In this document: in pieces, positions 8,663 to 34,380 of the stretch
Layout: every line of letters begins with the position of its first letter
Numbering within the stretch: the first letter of the stretch is position 1
DNA from: an uncultured Bacteroidales bacterium
GTDB taxonomy: Bacteria; Bacteroidota; Bacteroidia; Bacteroidales; UBA932
Length of the DNA stretch: 64,000 nt
NCBI GenBank assembly: GCA_947168525.1
Contig: CAMVMG010000003.1
Coordinates: 93,823 to 157,822 of the forward strand
Direction of reading: 5' to 3'
The notes under the pieces: generated by a model
What the model was told of the DNA's origin: nothing
Database searches by the model: none
What the model saw: the letters and a program-made list of their open reading frames with translations, nothing else
Translations under genes and position numbers: made by a program

Positions 8663-9322
8663 TTATTGCGTATCAATCTGTCTCCTGACGGCTTCCAGGA
8701 AGAATTCCCGGCGCTGGTCCCGGGTAACGGGATAACGGACAAGGCGGGAGCTGTCTTTGAGGCCGTCCTCCAGGTTGCAGACAAAGAGGTCGTCCACATC
8801 GGTCAGGTAGAGCATGTTATAGCGGTTGTCCTGGCACTTCTGCAGGGACAGGACGTACTGCATGGCCTTGACGGCGTCGGCCTCGTGAAGATTATCCCGG
8901 CAGAATACGTACAGCCCCATTTTGTTAAAGCGGCCATAGAAGCCATTCCCCACCTTGCACACCTTGCTTTCCAGGATCCGGCGAAGCGGCAACGCCATGG
9001 ACCAGTATGAAAGCTCTTTCACGCCGATATACTTTCCCTCCCGCAGACCATAGGCATAGCCGGATTCCAGGATCTGCTCCATCTCCTTCTGCGGAGCACC
9101 GCTCGTGAGGCCGGCAACATCTTTCAGCAGCATTTCCTCCGCTTTCTTGCTTTCTTCCATCGCCCGCGTCACCTCGATTCCGAGGCTCTGGTTGTCTGGC
9201 GATTGCAAGTCCGGCCGGTCCCGGTTTACAAGGCAGTCAAACTCGCTTCCCAGCAGCGCAGAGAGCGAGATTTGGGCATACTGCTCAAAGAAACAGGTGC
9301 CGTATTTTCGAAGTGTGGACAT
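8663..9322 (-). CDS. Hypothetical protein, possible PD-(D/E)XK-like nuclease fold
   Basis: 219-aa ORF with DRPDLQ…LGIEVT, a pattern typical of PD-(D/E)xK-related domains. Confidence 0.55.
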   Translation of the reverse strand: MSTLRKYGTCFFEQYAQISLSALLGSEFDCLVNRDRPDLQSPDNQSLGIEVTRAMEESKKAEEMLLKDVAGLTSGAPQKEMEQILESGYAYGLREGKYIGVKELSYWSMALPLRRILESKVCKVGNGFYGRFNKMGLYVFCRDNLHEADAVKAMQYVLSLQKCQDNRYNMLYLTDVDDLFVCNLEDGLKDSSRLVRYPVTRDQRREFFLEAVRRQIDTQ

Positions 9323-9515
9323 GGATTCTCATTTTTCGGTCATTCTTTCTTGCAAAGATGGGAATATTTTTTGGAATATCGCTGGCCCCGCCCCCGTTCA
9401 CAGCCCAAGCTGCGCCAAAAAGTGACGGAGTGGTCCAAAACAGAGTACCGGCACTTGATAATATAATTAGTTTTTACTAAACTTGTGCAAAAGAGCGAAA
9501 CCATGGGAGGGACCT

Positions 9516-10010
9516 ATGACAGACTTTGCAGCAATAGACTTTGAGACGGCCAATGAGTGCCGCTCCAGCGTGTGCAGCGTGGGCGTGGTGATTGTCCGCG
9601 GAGGGCAAATCGTTGACTCCTTCTACTCGCTCATCCACCCGGAGCCGGAGTACTACCAGTGGTTTTGTAAACGTGTTCACGGGCTGTCGGAAGAGGACAC
9701 CGAAGATGCCCCGGTGTTCCCGGAGGTCTGGGAAAAGATTGCCCCGATGGTGGAAGGCCTCCCGCTGGTGGCACACAACGCCCCTTTCGACGAAGGCTGC
9801 CTGAAGGAAGTGTTCAAGATGTATCGGATGGACTATCCGGATTATGAGTTCCACGACACCCTGGCGGCATCCCGCCGGATCTACGGGCACAGCCTCCCCA
9901 ATCACCAGCTCCAGACCGTGGCCGCCGCCTGCGGATACGACCTCTCGCGGCATCATCACGCCCTGGCCGACGCAGAGGCGTGTGCCGCCATCGCAGTAAG
10001 AATCCTGTAA
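9516..10010 (+). CDS. DEDDh 3'-5' exonuclease (DNA polymerase III epsilon-like)
   Basis: AIDFETAN, VAHNAPFD and HHALADAEAC motifs; start MTDF at 9516 after GGAGG. Confidence 0.93.
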   Translation: MTDFAAIDFETANECRSSVCSVGVVIVRGGQIVDSFYSLIHPEPEYYQWFCKRVHGLSEEDTEDAPVFPEVWEKIAPMVEGLPLVAHNAPFDEGCLKEVFKMYRMDYPDYEFHDTLAASRRIYGHSLPNHQLQTVAAACGYDLSRHHHALADAEACAAIAVRIL

Positions 10011-10032
10011 GTTAGCAATTAAAAACAAAACC

Positions 10033-10764
10033 ATGAAAAAAAGCATTCTATACCTCGCGAGCCTCCTTCTGGCAGCCCTTTCCTGCACCGGTCCCCGGGA
10101 AAATCCGGCCGACGAACCCTTTACGGACGCCGTCAGCACCGCCCTCGCCAACGGCGGACGCATCGATCCCGCCCTGTTCCAGTGGACACGGGAGCCGCAA
10201 TCCTGCAGCATTTCTCAGGACACCATCCGCATCACCACGGCGCCTCAGACCGACCTCTGGCAGCGGACCTACTACCATTTCCGGAACGACAACGCCCCGG
10301 TCTTCCAGGTCCGGACCCGGGAACGGTATTTCAGCTTTGTGGTAAAAACGGATTTCACCCAGAGCCACCAGCGCTTCGACCAATGCGGCATCGTCATGTA
10401 CCTGGACAGCGAAAACTGGCTGAAAGGCTCCGTGGAGTTCGAGAACGCAGCTTTCCAGCATTTGGGCAGTGTAGCCACCAACCACGGCTACTCGGACTGG
10501 GCAACCACTGCCATCAGCGCCGACGTCAAGACCATGTGGTACCGCTTCTCCCGCCGCGCAGACGACTACTGCATCGAGTGTTCGTCCAACGGCATCGATT
10601 TCTCCCAGATGCGCATCTGCCATATGTACGAGGGAGCCGACACCATCTCCTTCGGCATCTACGCCTGCTCTCCGGAGGCATCGTCCTTCACGGCCGTATT
10701 CACGGACATGCGCATCACCGAGTGCATGTGGAAGGCCCATGACGGGCAGCAGCCGGACGAGTAG
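10033..10764 (+). CDS. DUF1349-family lipoprotein (concanavalin-like fold)
   Basis: Lipobox ALSC; TDLWQRTYYHFRNDNAP, FDQCGIV, WLKGSVE and GIYACSPE motifs. Confidence 0.85.
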   Translation: MKKSILYLASLLLAALSCTGPRENPADEPFTDAVSTALANGGRIDPALFQWTREPQSCSISQDTIRITTAPQTDLWQRTYYHFRNDNAPVFQVRTRERYFSFVVKTDFTQSHQRFDQCGIVMYLDSENWLKGSVEFENAAFQHLGSVATNHGYSDWATTAISADVKTMWYRFSRRADDYCIECSSNGIDFSQMRICHMYEGADTISFGIYACSPEASSFTAVFTDMRITECMWKAHDGQQPDE

Positions 10765-19471: not shown

Positions 19472-19521
19472 ATCCCTTGTATTTCCACAAAAATAACGAT
19501 TTTCCCCCATTCTTCCTGGTC

Positions 19522-19657
19522 CCAAGTGCAAAAACCGCCCAAAATGCACTTGGCAGCCACCAAACTGCCCGGCCCAAGTGCAAAAACCGCCCAAAATGCA
19601 CTTGGTAAGCACCAAACTGCCCGGTCCAAGTGCAAAATCGACCTAAAATGCACTTGA
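19522..19657. repeat. REP-like tandem palindrome array A-left (3 units, 52-bp period)
   Basis: CCAAGTGCA-14 nt-TGCACTTGG units start at 19522, 19574 and 19626, separated by near-identical 20-nt linkers (YARCACCAAACTGCCCGGY-like). Confidence 0.95.
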
Positions 19658-19813
19658 CAAATCGTAAAAAAGAAAACGGATGTTGTCATTATTTCAACCG
19701 AACGGCATTAAAATACAACAAACATCGTAATAAACCGCAAAAAGAGACTTTGGAAGCCTGCCACGCATTTGCAGGAAGAGTAACTGGTCGTTATGTTTGC
19801 AAAAACATGTATT

Positions 19814-20731
19814 ATGAATAAACCGACGGAGTACCAGCTGGAAAGGCTATTTGCCCAGTCCGGACCTTTCTTCCACTTATATACATCGCCCTTGGAGAAC
19901 GATGTCTTGATGGACTGTGACGAAGACCGGACTATAATCCTGAACATGATTGCACTTGTTTCCCGGGAAGCAAACTTGGAAGTTTTGGCCTATGCCTTGA
20001 TGAGCAACCATTTACATATTATCTTCAAAGGCTCCGAGTTAAATGGGAATACCTTCTTTGAACTATTGGCCAAAAGGCTGAAACGATATTTGTCGGGGAA
20101 AGGGAAAGCCAAATGCATTTCAAAGGTTTGCTGCGGGATACAATCCATTACAAGCCTGAGACAGTTCCGGGATGAGATAGCTTATGTTATCCGCAATCCC
20201 TTCGTGGTCCGGGATGACATCAATCTCTTTGCCTATCAATGGTGCAGCGGCTTTCTCTACTTTAATCCTCTTTTGTCTTTCAGGAAGGGTATTCCTGCCG
20301 TAGAAGTCAGTTACCGGGAACGCCGGCGGATTACACGCTCTGCCGATATGGAACTTCCCGAGGGGTTATGGGTATCTGGCGACTTAATTCTCCCGGAGAG
20401 TTTTGTCAATTATCGGCTTGTGGAATCCCTGTTTGGAAGTGCCCGGAAGTTTTTGTTCTGGGTACTGAAAAACGTTGAGGCGCAAGTGGAGTTGGCAAAT
20501 AAGTATGGTGAATCGGTCGGTGTCTCCGACGATGAGATGTTCCAGTTGTCCAGGCAAATGTGTGAAAAACAATTTGGCGTCAAAACTCCGCAGGATTTGC
20601 CGGAATCGCAGCAGAAAGAACTCGCCATTTTGCTCCGGAACCGTTACCAAGCCTCGAACGCTCAATTATGCCGATTAACCGGCCTTTCCAAATCCAAGAT
20701 TGACACACTTTATCCCCTTTCCACCAGATAA
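19814..20731 (+). mobile_element. HUH/Y1 tyrosine transposase, REP-associated (RAYT-like)
   Basis: HUH motif in LAYALMSNHLHII, catalytic Tyr candidate in AYVIRNP, YQWCSG, and a C-terminal HTH-like segment (AQLCRLTGLS). Visibly more AT-rich than its neighbours; flanked by palindrome arrays. Confidence 0.85.
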
Positions 20732-20742
20732 AACACGGATTG

Positions 20743-21034
20743 CCAAGTGCAAAAACCGCCCAAAATGCACTTGGCAGCCACCAAACTGCCCGGCCCAAGT
20801 GCAAAAACCGCCCAAAATGCACTTGGTAAGCACCAAACTGCCCGGACCAAGTGCAAAATCGGCCCAAAATGCACTTGGTAAGCACCAAACTGCCCGGTCC
20901 AAGTGCAAAAACCGCCCAAAATGCACTTGGTAAGCACCAAACGGCCCGGCCCAAGTGCAAAATCGGCCCAAAATGCACTTGGTAACCACCAAACTGCCCG
21001 GTCCAAGTGCAAAATCGGCCCAAAATGCACTTGG
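20743..21034. repeat. REP-like tandem palindrome array A-right (6 units, 52-bp period)
   Basis: Units start at 20743, 20795, 20847, 20899, 20951 and 21003; same sequence and orientation as A-left. Confidence 0.95.
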
Positions 21035-21074
21035 TAACCATCTCATACAGAAAAATGCGTATCTTTGCACTGCC

Positions 21075-31656: not shown

Positions 31657-32679
31657 ATGAAAAAGATTATCTTAGCCCTGGCTACTCTGGCAATTGCCTT
31701 TACAGCCTGCAACAAGGCGGAGGACACGAATACAACTTCCCCCTATTCCAACGTTAAGGTTCACCTCACCGTAACCGCCCCTGAGGCCAATCTCACCAAA
31801 GCAAATTTTGCATGGACAGATCCCAGTAATCCTATCGGCGGCTTAAATGTCACCTGGAAGGAAGGAGACTATTTTGAACTGATTATTTTCCAAGGTAACA
31901 ACGCCGACTGGAAAACTAACTACATCCATAAGACATTTAGTTTACCTGCAGGAGCTGAGGGTCAAACATCCTATGACCTTTCCTCTCTTGTAGGATCAGT
32001 TGATCTCTCCAGCTTCGACGACACTAAGAACCTGAAATATGTCGTTGTATATGAAGGGTTTAATCACTTTAACGAGTATTGGCATGAGTTGAATATCTGG
32101 AACGGTGTTCCTAATTATAGTTATACCCTTTCTCCCAGCGAGCAGATTAATCGGACTATGTTTGCAGAAACAAACGTTCAGGAAATCGCATTCCCCTCCG
32201 GAGACCTTACCCTTAGCGGAAAACTATACTGGATGACTTCTGTCCTGGCTGTTCAGTTTGATATAGACCCGGCTGCCGACATCAGCTACCCTTCTGATTC
32301 GTACTTTATCTGCGATCTCACTCATCCAAGTATAGATCAAGTTGACTGCTATTTTCCCATCACCAGAAAATCTGATGCTTCTACTAAAATCATTTCCCTT
32401 CCTATTGTATTTAATGGTGGTGCCGCTTTAAGTGATGCACTTGACGGCAACAAATGCAGGTATTTTGCCATTCCTTCAGACAGTATTCTCGACGCTGCCG
32501 GAAATACCCGCAAATTAGGAGGAGCCAATGTAAGTTTCCGCCTTTCTAGTCCGAATATAACTTATACTTCTTCCGGTTCCCTTTCCGATGTTGCCATTGA
32601 ACCTGGAATGGTTTACGGTATTAAAGTAAAAGTCACTGACTCTGACAGTAACGGCGAGCCTGAATTTACAAAGCTGTAA
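31657..32679 (+). CDS. Fimbrillin/type V pilin-like surface lipoprotein
   Basis: SPII signal MKKIILALATLAIAFTAC; TKA…VTWKEGD motif; C-terminal strand IEPGMVYGIKVKV; AT-rich. Confidence 0.7.
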   Translation: MKKIILALATLAIAFTACNKAEDTNTTSPYSNVKVHLTVTAPEANLTKANFAWTDPSNPIGGLNVTWKEGDYFELIIFQGNNADWKTNYIHKTFSLPAGAEGQTSYDLSSLVGSVDLSSFDDTKNLKYVVVYEGFNHFNEYWHELNIWNGVPNYSYTLSPSEQINRTMFAETNVQEIAFPSGDLTLSGKLYWMTSVLAVQFDIDPAADISYPSDSYFICDLTHPSIDQVDCYFPITRKSDASTKIISLPIVFNGGAALSDALDGNKCRYFAIPSDSILDAAGNTRKLGGANVSFRLSSPNITYTSSGSLSDVAIEPGMVYGIKVKVTDSDSNGEPEFTKL

Positions 32680-32705
32680 TCGTTCAGGACATCTATCAAA
32701 TATTT

Positions 32706-32737
32706 AGAGGCTGTATTCACAAAAGGATACAGCCTCT
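32706..32737. terminator. Terminator hairpin
   Basis: AGAGGCTGTAT-TCACAAAAGG-ATACAGCCTCT followed by a T-run. Confidence 0.8.
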
Positions 32738-32742
32738 TTTTC

Positions 32743-32850
32743 CTGTTTCTCCAGCTTTGACTTGGCGTAGTCCAGCGTAAGCTTGAAGGTCTTCTTCTGT
32801 GAGGAAGGGGCGTCGAACATGACGTCGGTCATTACGCGCTCGCAGATGGA
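32743..32850 (-). pseudogene. Diverged duplicate of the clpX 3' end
   Basis: Encodes [36 protein letters not shown] versus clp[36 protein letters not shown]. Hand count is 84/105 nt identical to 33160-33264. Confidence 0.92.
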
Positions 32851-32883
32851 ATCAGACACCTACGCTTGTAGATGTCTGATTCC
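32848..32883. other. Palindrome at the clpX-remnant junction
   Basis: GGAATCAGACA-C-CTAC-GCTT-GTAG-A-TGTCTGATTCC (11-bp perfect arms). Confidence 0.8.
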
Positions 32884-32905
32884 CTTTTATAGAGCCGTAA
32901 ATAGT

Positions 32906-32973
32906 CTGTCTGGGGCAGTAGCTCTAAGCGGAGTTTGGATTTCCGGACGGAGCGTGAGCACAGCCCCTGACAG
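32906..32973. other. 68-nt interrupted stem-loop of unknown nature
   Basis: Nested pairings CTGTC/GACAG, GGGGC/GCCCC, GCTC/GAGC and CGGA/TCCG. Confidence 0.6.
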
Positions 32974-33015
32974 AAAACAAAAAAACAGGCACCCATTTAG
33001 TGAATGGGCACCTCT

Positions 33016-33146
33016 GTCCACGAAAACGTCCTAATACGTGGACGAACCATGTAAATAACGCTCTCCGTCCACGAAAATGGCCAAAAACGTGGACGAACCA
33101 TGAAAATGACGCTCTCCGTCCACGAAAACGGCCTAAAACGTGGACG
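33016..33146. repeat. REP-like tandem palindrome array B (3 units, 51-bp period)
   Basis: (C)GTCCACG-14 nt-CGTGGACG with GTCCACG at 33016, 33067 and 33118; loops AAAACGTCCTAATA, AAAATGGCCAAAAA and AAAACGGCCTAAAA. Confidence 0.92.
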
Positions 33147-33159
33147 AGCCTGGGGTCTC

Positions 33160-34380
33160 TTATTTCTCCAACTTGGACTTAGCGTAGTCCAGCGTGAGTT
33201 TGAAGGTCTTTTTCCGCGAGGAGGGTGCGTCGAACATGGCGTCGGCCATCAGTTTTTCACAGATGCTCCGGAGACCACGTGCACCCAGCTTGTTCTGGAT
33301 GGACGTGTCCACGATCAGGTCCAGCACGGCAGGTTCTACGTCCAGGCGCATGCCGTCCATCTCGAACAGTTTCTGGTACTGGCGCAGGAGGGCGTTCTTG
33401 GGCTCCGTGAGGATACGCTTGAGGGAATCGCGGTCCAGCTGGTCCAGATACGTGATCACGGGCAGGCGGCCGACGATTTCCGGAATCAGGCCATAGGAGC
33501 GAAGGTCCATGGCATCTACATACTCCAGGAGATTGTCTGTGTGGATACGCTCTTTCTCCTCTGCGTTGAAGCCGATGATCCTGGTGTTTTTCCGGAGGGC
33601 GATATGGCGCTCGATACCCTCGAACGCGCCTCCGCAGATGAACAGGATATTCTGCGTGTTTACGTGGATGAACTCCTGTTCCGGATGCTTGCGGCCACCC
33701 TTTGGCGGAACATTCACGATACTGCCCTCCAGCAGTTTGAGCATGGCCTGCTGCACTCCCTCGCCGGAAACGTCGCGGGTGATGGAAGGGTTGTCGCTCT
33801 TGCGGGCAATCTTATCTATCTCGTCGATAAAGACAATGCCGCGCTCTGCCTTGGCAAGGTCGAAATCGGCCACCTGCAGCAGCCGGGTAAGGATGCTCTC
33901 CACATCTTCACCTACATAGCCGGCCTCCGTGAGCACCGTGGCATCCACGATAGTGAACGGCACGTCCAGCATTTTGGCTATGGTGCGGGCCAGGAGCGTT
34001 TTACCGGTTCCCGTAGGGCCCACCAGAAGGATGTTGCTCTTTTCCAGTTCCACGCCGTCGTCCGGCTTGTCTACCAGATTGTGGCTGATGCGCTTGTAAT
34101 GGTTGTAAACGGCCACCGACAGCACTTTCTTGGCCCGGTCCTGGCCGATTACGTACTGATCCAGGTAATCCTTGATTTCCTGCGGCTTGGGAGCCTTCCC
34201 CAAAGCAGGGGCAGCCTGCGAAGCACTCCCCTTCTTCTCAATCTCGTCCACATACTGCGCCGCCAGACGGGCACAGTCGCTGCAGATGAATCCGTCCATT
34301 CCCTGCAACAGGAACGGCACTTCAGCGTCGGTCCGGCCGCAGAGGATACAATGATCCGTATGGTCGTTCTTCTTAGCCAT
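33160..34380 (-). CDS. clpX: ATP-dependent Clp protease ATP-binding subunit
   Basis: C4 zinc finger, [22 protein letters not shown] and IDEIDKI motifs; start MAKKND at 34380 overlaps the clpP stop (TAATG). Confidence 0.98.

Follow-up and report, generated by a model that had tools for sequence, protein, structure and literature searches.

The window analysed here (64 kb of DNA from an uncultured Bacteroidales bacterium) carries a short array of palindromes, family B, in the 3′ flank of clpX (33160..34380, minus strand; 406 aa from the ATG at 34380; Pfam, translation and homologues). The array was located by TRF, repeat finding and pattern search at 33012..33147 on the plus strand and comprises three hairpins and two linkers; TRF reports it as one array with a period of 51, 2.7 copies, 89% matches and a score of 223. 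The stem has 8 bp, CGTCCACG/CGTGGACG, and the loops are all 14 nt long without being identical: unit 1 reads TGTCCACG-AAAACGTCCTAATA-CGTGGACG (33015..33044, plus strand; pattern search, fold −6.8 kcal/mol), its 5′ arm TGTCCACG beginning with a T that gives a G·T pair, unit 2 reads CGTCCACG-AAAATGGCCAAAAA-CGTGGACG (33066..33095, plus strand; pattern search, fold −8.7 kcal/mol), and unit 3 reads CGTCCACG-AAAACGGCCTAAAA-CGTGGACG (33117..33146, plus strand; pattern search, fold), with 13 nt between its end and the clpX stop codon. The units run head-to-tail, with loops that are A-rich on the plus strand and U/T-rich on the clpX sense strand, and are joined by two linkers of 21 nt each (AACCATGWAAATRACGCTCTC), the third unit having none. 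A first-pass annotation of this DNA had described three units at a 51-bp period, with 14-nt loops and with stems different from those of another palindrome family in the window, family A; TRF, pattern search and folding bear this out. The one loop it quoted is exactly that of unit 3, but units 1 and 2 have other loops. It had also placed the array some 12 kb from family A, which ends at 21037, with no transposase gene alongside, and the neighbours are indeed a 340-aa lipoprotein-like ORF, clpX, clpP and tig.

The repeat stands out clearly from the background of the window. A 30-nt unit pattern with up to 3 mismatches finds its three matches in the window and none in 100 shuffles, and each unit is a predicted single-stranded DNA hairpin of −6.8 to −8.7 kcal/mol (z −2.8 to −4.6). 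When the window was scanned with relaxed settings for hairpins of the form stem-A3/4-N-A3/4-stem, only the nine units of family A and the three of family B rose above chance, and within the window family B is confined to this single site. Inside an array, an arm can alternatively pair with the next one over the linker (arm-linker-arm, reaching 12–14 bp in some families), giving two folding registers, as in the window at 33012-33147 and 20743-21037 and in metagenome loci L131 (11695-11808) and L140 (1043-1180). A-tracts start about every 10 bp, in family B at unit positions 9, 19 and 38, and with this spacing the double-stranded arrays may be intrinsically curved.

The clpX stop codon occupies 33160-33162, the array begins 13 nt past it, and on the far side unit 1 abuts a terminator-like hairpin (32987..33013, minus strand; 11 pairs followed by GTTTTTTTGT; hairpin search and RNA fold). 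Lying between the stop codon and this hairpin, the array would be part of the clpX 3′ UTR, and, judged from the sequence, the transcript would gain from it three stable hairpins upstream of the putative terminator. Beyond lies a displaced and decayed copy of the clpX 3′ end (32741..32848, minus strand), 81% identical at the nucleotide level to 33158-33265; its 108 nt hold the last ~35 codons with the frame kept and the stop lost, and the array and the terminator fill the space of about 310 bp that separates it from the live stop upstream. A further terminator-like hairpin (32706..32737, plus strand; 13 pairs and TTTTT; hairpin search), lying past the ends of both the clpX remnant and the convergent 340-aa ORF, was probably the original shared bidirectional terminator. 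The peptide of the displaced copy (ICERV...) is the C-terminus type of ClpX relatives at 90–91% identity and that of the live gene is the ICEKL type, which suggests that recombination replaced the clpX end; probably, a segment of ~420 bp containing the clpX 3′ end, the array and the terminator replaced the old end. The present site of the array may thus not be a primary insertion. The breakpoint of the displaced copy is abutted by a hairpin with a 16-bp stem (32848-32883). No second copy of the segment 32680-33015 occurs in the window or in loci L001-L159, and flanking duplication as a general insertion signature was dismissed, as 0 of 22 other arrays have one. Rfam returned nothing for 32400-33400 except a sub-threshold chance match, and Bacteroidetes promoter motifs in the T-rich loop strand were rejected for wrong spacing, judged by eye.

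Family A provides the comparison for the array at clpX. Its two arrays, both found by TRF on the plus strand in the same orientation at a 52-bp period, lie upstream (19521..19660, 2.7 units) and downstream (20743..21037, 5.7 units) of a transposase-like gene, and the unit consists of CCAAGTGCA-AAAACCGCCCAAAA-TGCACTTGG and a 20-nt linker. The first-pass annotation held that the loops of the two families nearly coincide, and the numbers agree: the loop of unit 3 has 2/14 mismatches to each family A loop variant, those of units 1 and 2 have 3–4, and up to 2 mismatches are expected with P ~3e-6 per comparison for a random 14-mer of the same composition. Among 126,646 other 14-mers of the window, just 2 are as similar to the family A loops as unit 3 is. 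Both families share a geometry of 14-nt loop, 8–9-bp stem and a period of 52 or 51 bp. Their stems are unrelated, as had been proposed, with 3/9 and 2/9 bases identical; the same claim holds less strictly for the linkers, which have little in common but do share an internal A-tract. The likeness between A and B is therefore real and confined to the loop (12/14 matches) and the geometry.

The gene between the family A arrays (19793..20731, plus strand) was recognised by homologues, motifs and fold as encoding a RAYT-like HUH/Y1 protein of 312 aa. H73 and H75 of the HUH motif, together with Y131, R134 and N135, are invariant in 28 aligned homologues. The AlphaFold (AF2) model of the protein has a pLDDT of 86.8, and its best fold match in the PDB is 4ER8_A (E 2.9e-4), the E. 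coli TnpA-REP (REP-associated tyrosine transposase, RAYT) bound to a REP hairpin, followed by the TnpA of IS608 and ISDra2. As modelled, the flanked protein has a TnpA-REP/IS200 fold together with the catalytic motifs. It falls below the cut-offs of the established families: there is no Pfam match at default thresholds, and it scores 20.7 bits against the NCBIfam RAYT model NF047646 (cut-off 80) and 14.8 bits against Pfam PF01797, Y1_Tnp (cut-off 23), which is matched at E≤0.1 by 26 of the 28 homologues (best 2e-7). The C-terminal half (residues ~160-312, ~150 aa) is conserved, with S288, N289, Q291 and R294 invariant and with confidently modelled helices; it has no Pfam or PDB sequence family match, only weak HTH hints.

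Members of this protein family range from 306 to 332 aa. The 435 homologues all lie on Bacteroidales-type metagenome contigs, most of them 1–3 kb long, suggesting that assemblies break at the arrays. From species to species, the family A gene keeps its synteny with lplA, mnmA and an ABC-F gene, and such a single-copy, syntenic gene appears to behave as a domesticated RAYT. All eight of the A-side homologues examined have 51/52-bp hairpin units beside the gene: those at 57–62% identity have CCAGGTGCA stems, and more distant ones have (C)AGTGCA, TCATCCTCA, GGGGCAAAA or ATGTGTAAAA stems, with the period always at 51–52 bp.

A cognate HUH gene for the family B stems, which the first-pass annotation had anticipated, was found in relatives. 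Locus L131 encodes a RAYT-like ORF of 317 aa, 35% identical to the window protein, preceded by four CGTCCACG units and followed by three or more 52-bp units in inverted orientation; it comes from a different organism, as its run set does not overlap that of the window. Loci L160-162 encode orthologues, 77% identical, in the same MFS-RAYT synteny, the RAYT gene adjoining an MFS transporter gene. Across L131 and L160-162, the ORF is flanked by CGTCCACG or CATCCACG arrays; the TCATCCACG/CGTGGATGA units of L160-162 have a stem that differs from family B by one compensatory change. A 51% homologue (L165) is accompanied by TCGTCCGGG arrays with AAAAGGGGCAAAAA loops. The identity matrix resolves two RAYT protein clades, and stem similarity tracks them. 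The clades occupy different conserved neighbourhoods, A (window, L122, L150, L151) near lplA/mnmA/ABC-F and B (L131, L160-164) directly after the MFS gene, which fits vertically inherited paralogues.

Across 26 hairpins, which were chosen as hairpins and so favour pairing from the outset, all nine stem pairs have changed on both sides, and 94% of cells are paired, compared with 72% in shuffles and 22–39% with slid partners. Both lines of evidence, stem likeness tracking protein likeness and compensatory change at 9/9 pairs, support the earlier proposal of the stem as a family-specific address, in that stems behave as clade-specific.

Is family B then a dispersed element or a local duplication? 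Dispersal, as first proposed, is what the other copies argue for. A metagenome scan with W4-N6-W4 loops found family B stems at 24 loci, all on contigs of gut or rumen type and mostly with 1–4 units at 51-bp spacing. These units usually sit 4–60 nt past a stop codon or between convergent genes, and solo units occur as arm-14 nt-arm, which identifies the 14-nt segment as the loop and not the linker. In GTDB, the goat-rumen Bacteroidales MAG RGIG3317 has two sites, each a 2-unit 51-bp array between convergent genes, where the loop flanks pair (A4/T4) to give terminator-like long stems followed by T-rich tails. Among the matches listed from a stems-only GTDB scan with N14 loops, nearly all were chance hits in high-GC genomes, and the informative ones were three Bacteroidales loci and two from Plesiocystis. 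The latter, in the myxobacterium Plesiocystis pacifica SIR-1 (L043 3647-3780 and L115 6431-6668), are 52-bp tandem arrays with CGTCCACG/CGTGGACG arms at 14-nt spacing and unrelated loops (ACTCAGAGGGCCGT, ACTGTTTTAGCCGT); they may be coincidence or part of a wider class of 52-bp hairpin arrays. Viral contigs yielded neither A nor B units, and at none of the array loci did we see transposition, an empty site or a cleavage site.

The window sequence itself is present in sheep, goat and bovine gut metagenome runs. Its ClpX has no identical sequence on record by exact look-up, and the closest named relatives are from Bacteroidales MAGs and Candidatus Cryptobacteroides. In a sheep-gut contig of run X1, exactly one 51-bp unit is missing (33016-33066), leaving a 2-unit allele for which assembler collapse is a possible cause; contigs of three other runs have no such gap, two of them spanning all three units and the third covering only the two ends of the array. 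The 2-unit allele suggests VNTR-like copy-number variation at the array. Extra depth over unit 2 and several loose ends show that the same metagenomes contain similar units elsewhere.

The loop theme reaches well beyond families A and B. A loop of the form A4-(GC-rich)6-A4 is present on at least six unrelated stems; many of these loops were ascertained by the W4-N6-W4 pattern, but others came to light independently of the loop, in neighbours with mismatched stems or in arrays reached via the protein. Further stem families with the A-tract/GC/A-tract loop (CGAGCACA, TTGGGCAGG and GCCTGCA) occur at L132 3024-3106, L142 6745-6776 and L126 2610-2641. Different stem families share single contigs in L126, L132, L142 and the window itself; since the contigs of L132, L142 and L126 also carry family B units, several families coexist in one genome. 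Contrary to the earlier claim, the loop is not invariant: in the closest family A relatives (L122, L150, L151) CCAG replaces one A4, and L154, L158 and the goat MAG have A4-N6-T4, that is, a longer stem. To call it the shared functional determinant, as the first-pass annotation did, is likewise to overstate what the comparison gives. There is precedent in group 3 RAYTs acting on perfect-palindrome REPs, where loop bases are essential and certain positions tolerate no change (PMC8266576), and by this analogy a role of the loop as a recognition determinant is plausible.

In the relatives, B-type arrays also occur in frame within three conserved genes. They lie in the central loop of an MFS transporter and in the N-domain of a radical-SAM YgiQ-like enzyme, and in a PBP1-type protein they separate the transpeptidase domain from the C-terminal one. 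The arrays lie at L131 9594-9787 (MFS ORF 8943-10469), L161 420-554, L135 4709-4787 and L136 7328-7406, and their reading frame is always the same one, which yields repeats of 17 residues (S-T-K-x-x-Q-N-V-D...). Two species have the MFS insertion in common, and in a third (L163) it has decayed.

Taken together, the repeat is a real one that is dispersed, forms hairpins and is polymorphic in copy number, the last with the reservation that the 2-unit allele may be an assembler collapse. We think it probable that the array is a non-autonomous REP-like element from a hairpin superfamily that co-diversifies with RAYT-like HUH/Y1 endonucleases, with B as the repeat of the second clade. The module is 51 nt long, with a perfect stem of 8–9 bp, a 14-nt A4-GC-rich-A4 loop and a linker of ~20 nt, three times over in the array; the superfamily occurs in ruminant-gut Bacteroidales and its enzymes would be RAYT-like HUH/Y1 single-strand DNA endonucleases of 306–332 aa, family A being the repeat type of the window's own clade and family B that of the other. 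A unit would spread by forming its hairpin on single-stranded DNA, where the cognate RAYT, acting in trans, would bind and cut or rejoin it, recognising the loop and the paired stem. Arrays would grow and shrink unit by unit through slippage, unequal exchange or re-insertion beside an existing unit. The earlier interpretation (a second family, a dispersed RAYT-type system, a shared loop and clade-specific stems) was thus largely right in kind. A more comprehensive reading joins an undescribed, sub-cut-off RAYT subclass of 306–332 aa with a C-terminal extension to 51/52-nt hairpin modules in which the loop is the recognition element and the stem the clade address, which grow head-to-tail and which, as 51 equals 3 × 17, have several times been incorporated into conserved proteins as in-frame repeats of 17 residues; we put this forward tentatively, as somewhat short of probable.

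Other readings of the array have to be weighed against this one. Family B could lack an enzyme of its own in this genome, being either cross-mobilised by the family A RAYT via the loop or an immobile relic, inherited or imported. The window has a single RAYT-like gene, flanked by family A and not by family B, the loops of the two families are nearly the same, and runs X1-X3, which contain the source organism, hold no relative of the L131 RAYT at ≥80% nucleotide identity, the contigs of X1-X4 matching only as promoter-region fragments; furthermore, the array lies within the segment bounded by the duplicated clpX 3′ end, which suggests recombination and not transposition. However, each RAYT clade in the relatives has its own stem type, which changes with the protein and so indicates stem-specific pairing, and 64 kb is a small fraction of a genome in which a divergent B-clade RAYT would escape the 80% nucleotide filter. 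We regard the absence of an own enzyme as unlikely. That chance produced a palindrome, which was then duplicated locally and resembles family A by coincidence, would agree with the single site in the window and with the ability of tandem duplication alone to yield three copies; but the shuffles contain no unit, the loop likeness is far from random expectation, and the stem, the loop length and the 51-bp period are shared by more than 24 unrelated loci and by arrays alongside RAYT genes. The dispersed copies rule this explanation out, and we give it practically no credence.

But could the array serve the host, independently of any transposase? It might act as a stabiliser or terminator in the clpX 3′ UTR, as curved DNA or as a protein-binding array, with the loop reflecting that function. 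Its position, 13 nt past the clpX stop with a terminator-like hairpin immediately behind it, its retention in several strains, the placement of most related units 4–60 nt from stop codons or between convergent genes, the terminator-like A4/T4 stems with T-rich tails in RGIG3317 and the A-tracts roughly one helical turn apart all speak for such a role. Against it, related units occur in frame inside coding regions, every lineage studied has units beside its RAYT genes, both their copy number and their presence vary, and a pure terminator role leaves three tandem copies before a separate terminator unexplained. As the full account of the array, host function is in our view quite improbable; it is compatible with the REP reading, not exclusive of it.

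Finally, we would like to place the REP-like element at clpX into the context of known systems. REP/RAYT systems are well studied in Proteobacteria, and our literature search found no publication joining RAYTs with Bacteroidales or Prevotella. As in the REP/REPtron systems with RAYT/TnpA-REP of E. coli, Pseudomonas and Stenotrophomonas (PMC3479197, PMC8266576, PMC6006769, PMC3116915), the repeats are short hairpins, in the metagenome loci mostly just downstream of genes, and the copies, dispersed across those loci and one MAG, cluster around a single-copy, syntenic HUH/Y1 gene; in those systems, too, there are several families per genome, each with its own enzyme clade, and intragenic copies are known. 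The repeats flank the RAYT of the matching clade, in the window for A and in relatives (L131, L160-162, L165), not in the window, for B. In contrast to classical REPs, there is no GT[AG]G guide, the 5′ flanks being GCTCT(C), GGCGTCT, GGCGACT and CCCTTC; the units are arranged head-to-tail at a fixed 51/52-bp period and not as inverted pairs (REPIN/BIME); the A4-N6-A4 loop is large, at 14 nt; and the enzyme, at 306–332 aa with a C-terminal half of ~150 aa without assignment, stays below the RAYT family cut-offs. In function and layout this is a REP/REPtron-type system that departs from two classical REP criteria.

Within the Bacteroidetes, TnpA-Y1 subclass 2.6 (RAYT group 5) is described as 'flanked by atypical secondary structures' (PMC6006769). 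It shares with our proteins the phylum, an NH[LIV]H-type HUH motif, a Y..(R/Q/N)NP-type Tyr motif and flanking structures without GTAG that have copies elsewhere in the genome (PMC6006769), but averages 179 aa with ~82 aa between HUH and Tyr (PMC6006769), compared with 312 aa and 58 aa (H73 to Y131) here; compared by published description, the two may be related. The CGTC-tagged REP superfamily (PMC3733652) comes close in that the B stem starts with CGTC and stems have 8–9 bp, and that superfamily, for which no adjacent transposase was reported, is known to have intragenic units (PMC3733652). Its members have an unpaired CGTC tag, loops of 4–5 nt, A/T pairs at the stem start and head-to-head dimers (PMC3733652); family B is not one of them, since its CGTC pairs with GACG and its loop has 14 nt, and its stem base is C-G/G-C and its order head-to-tail.

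Rickettsia palindromic elements (RPE) and other in-frame palindromic insertions resemble the related B-type arrays, and not the array of the window, in being read in frame as hydrophilic peptide repeats; unlike RPE, these are 51-nt modules in arrays with a RAYT link. With the ends of IS200/IS605 elements (IS608, ISDra2), the system would share the modelled enzyme fold and, by analogy, a dependence on single-stranded DNA hairpins, but the repeats do not bracket a mobile gene cassette and the RAYT-like gene is single-copy and syntenic. A CRISPR array was rejected, as what lies between the repeated arms, be it loop or linker, stays conserved from unit to unit and does not form unique spacers; a MITE was rejected, as 22 of 23 arrays have no flanking direct repeats, the exception being the 108-nt gene-end duplication.

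For Bacteroidota, the description of such systems has so far not gone beyond "atypical structures" (PMC6006769). The families offer natural swap experiments for RAYT substrate choice, since one loop is combined with six or more stems and there are at least two enzyme clades. The arrays appear to break short-read assemblies, could serve as typing markers given that copy number varies between strains, and add 17-residue repeats to proteins that gene callers and annotators will misread. The array at clpX is a variant within the known REP/RAYT type of element, and the transposase-like gene family that such repeats flank is a poorly described one.
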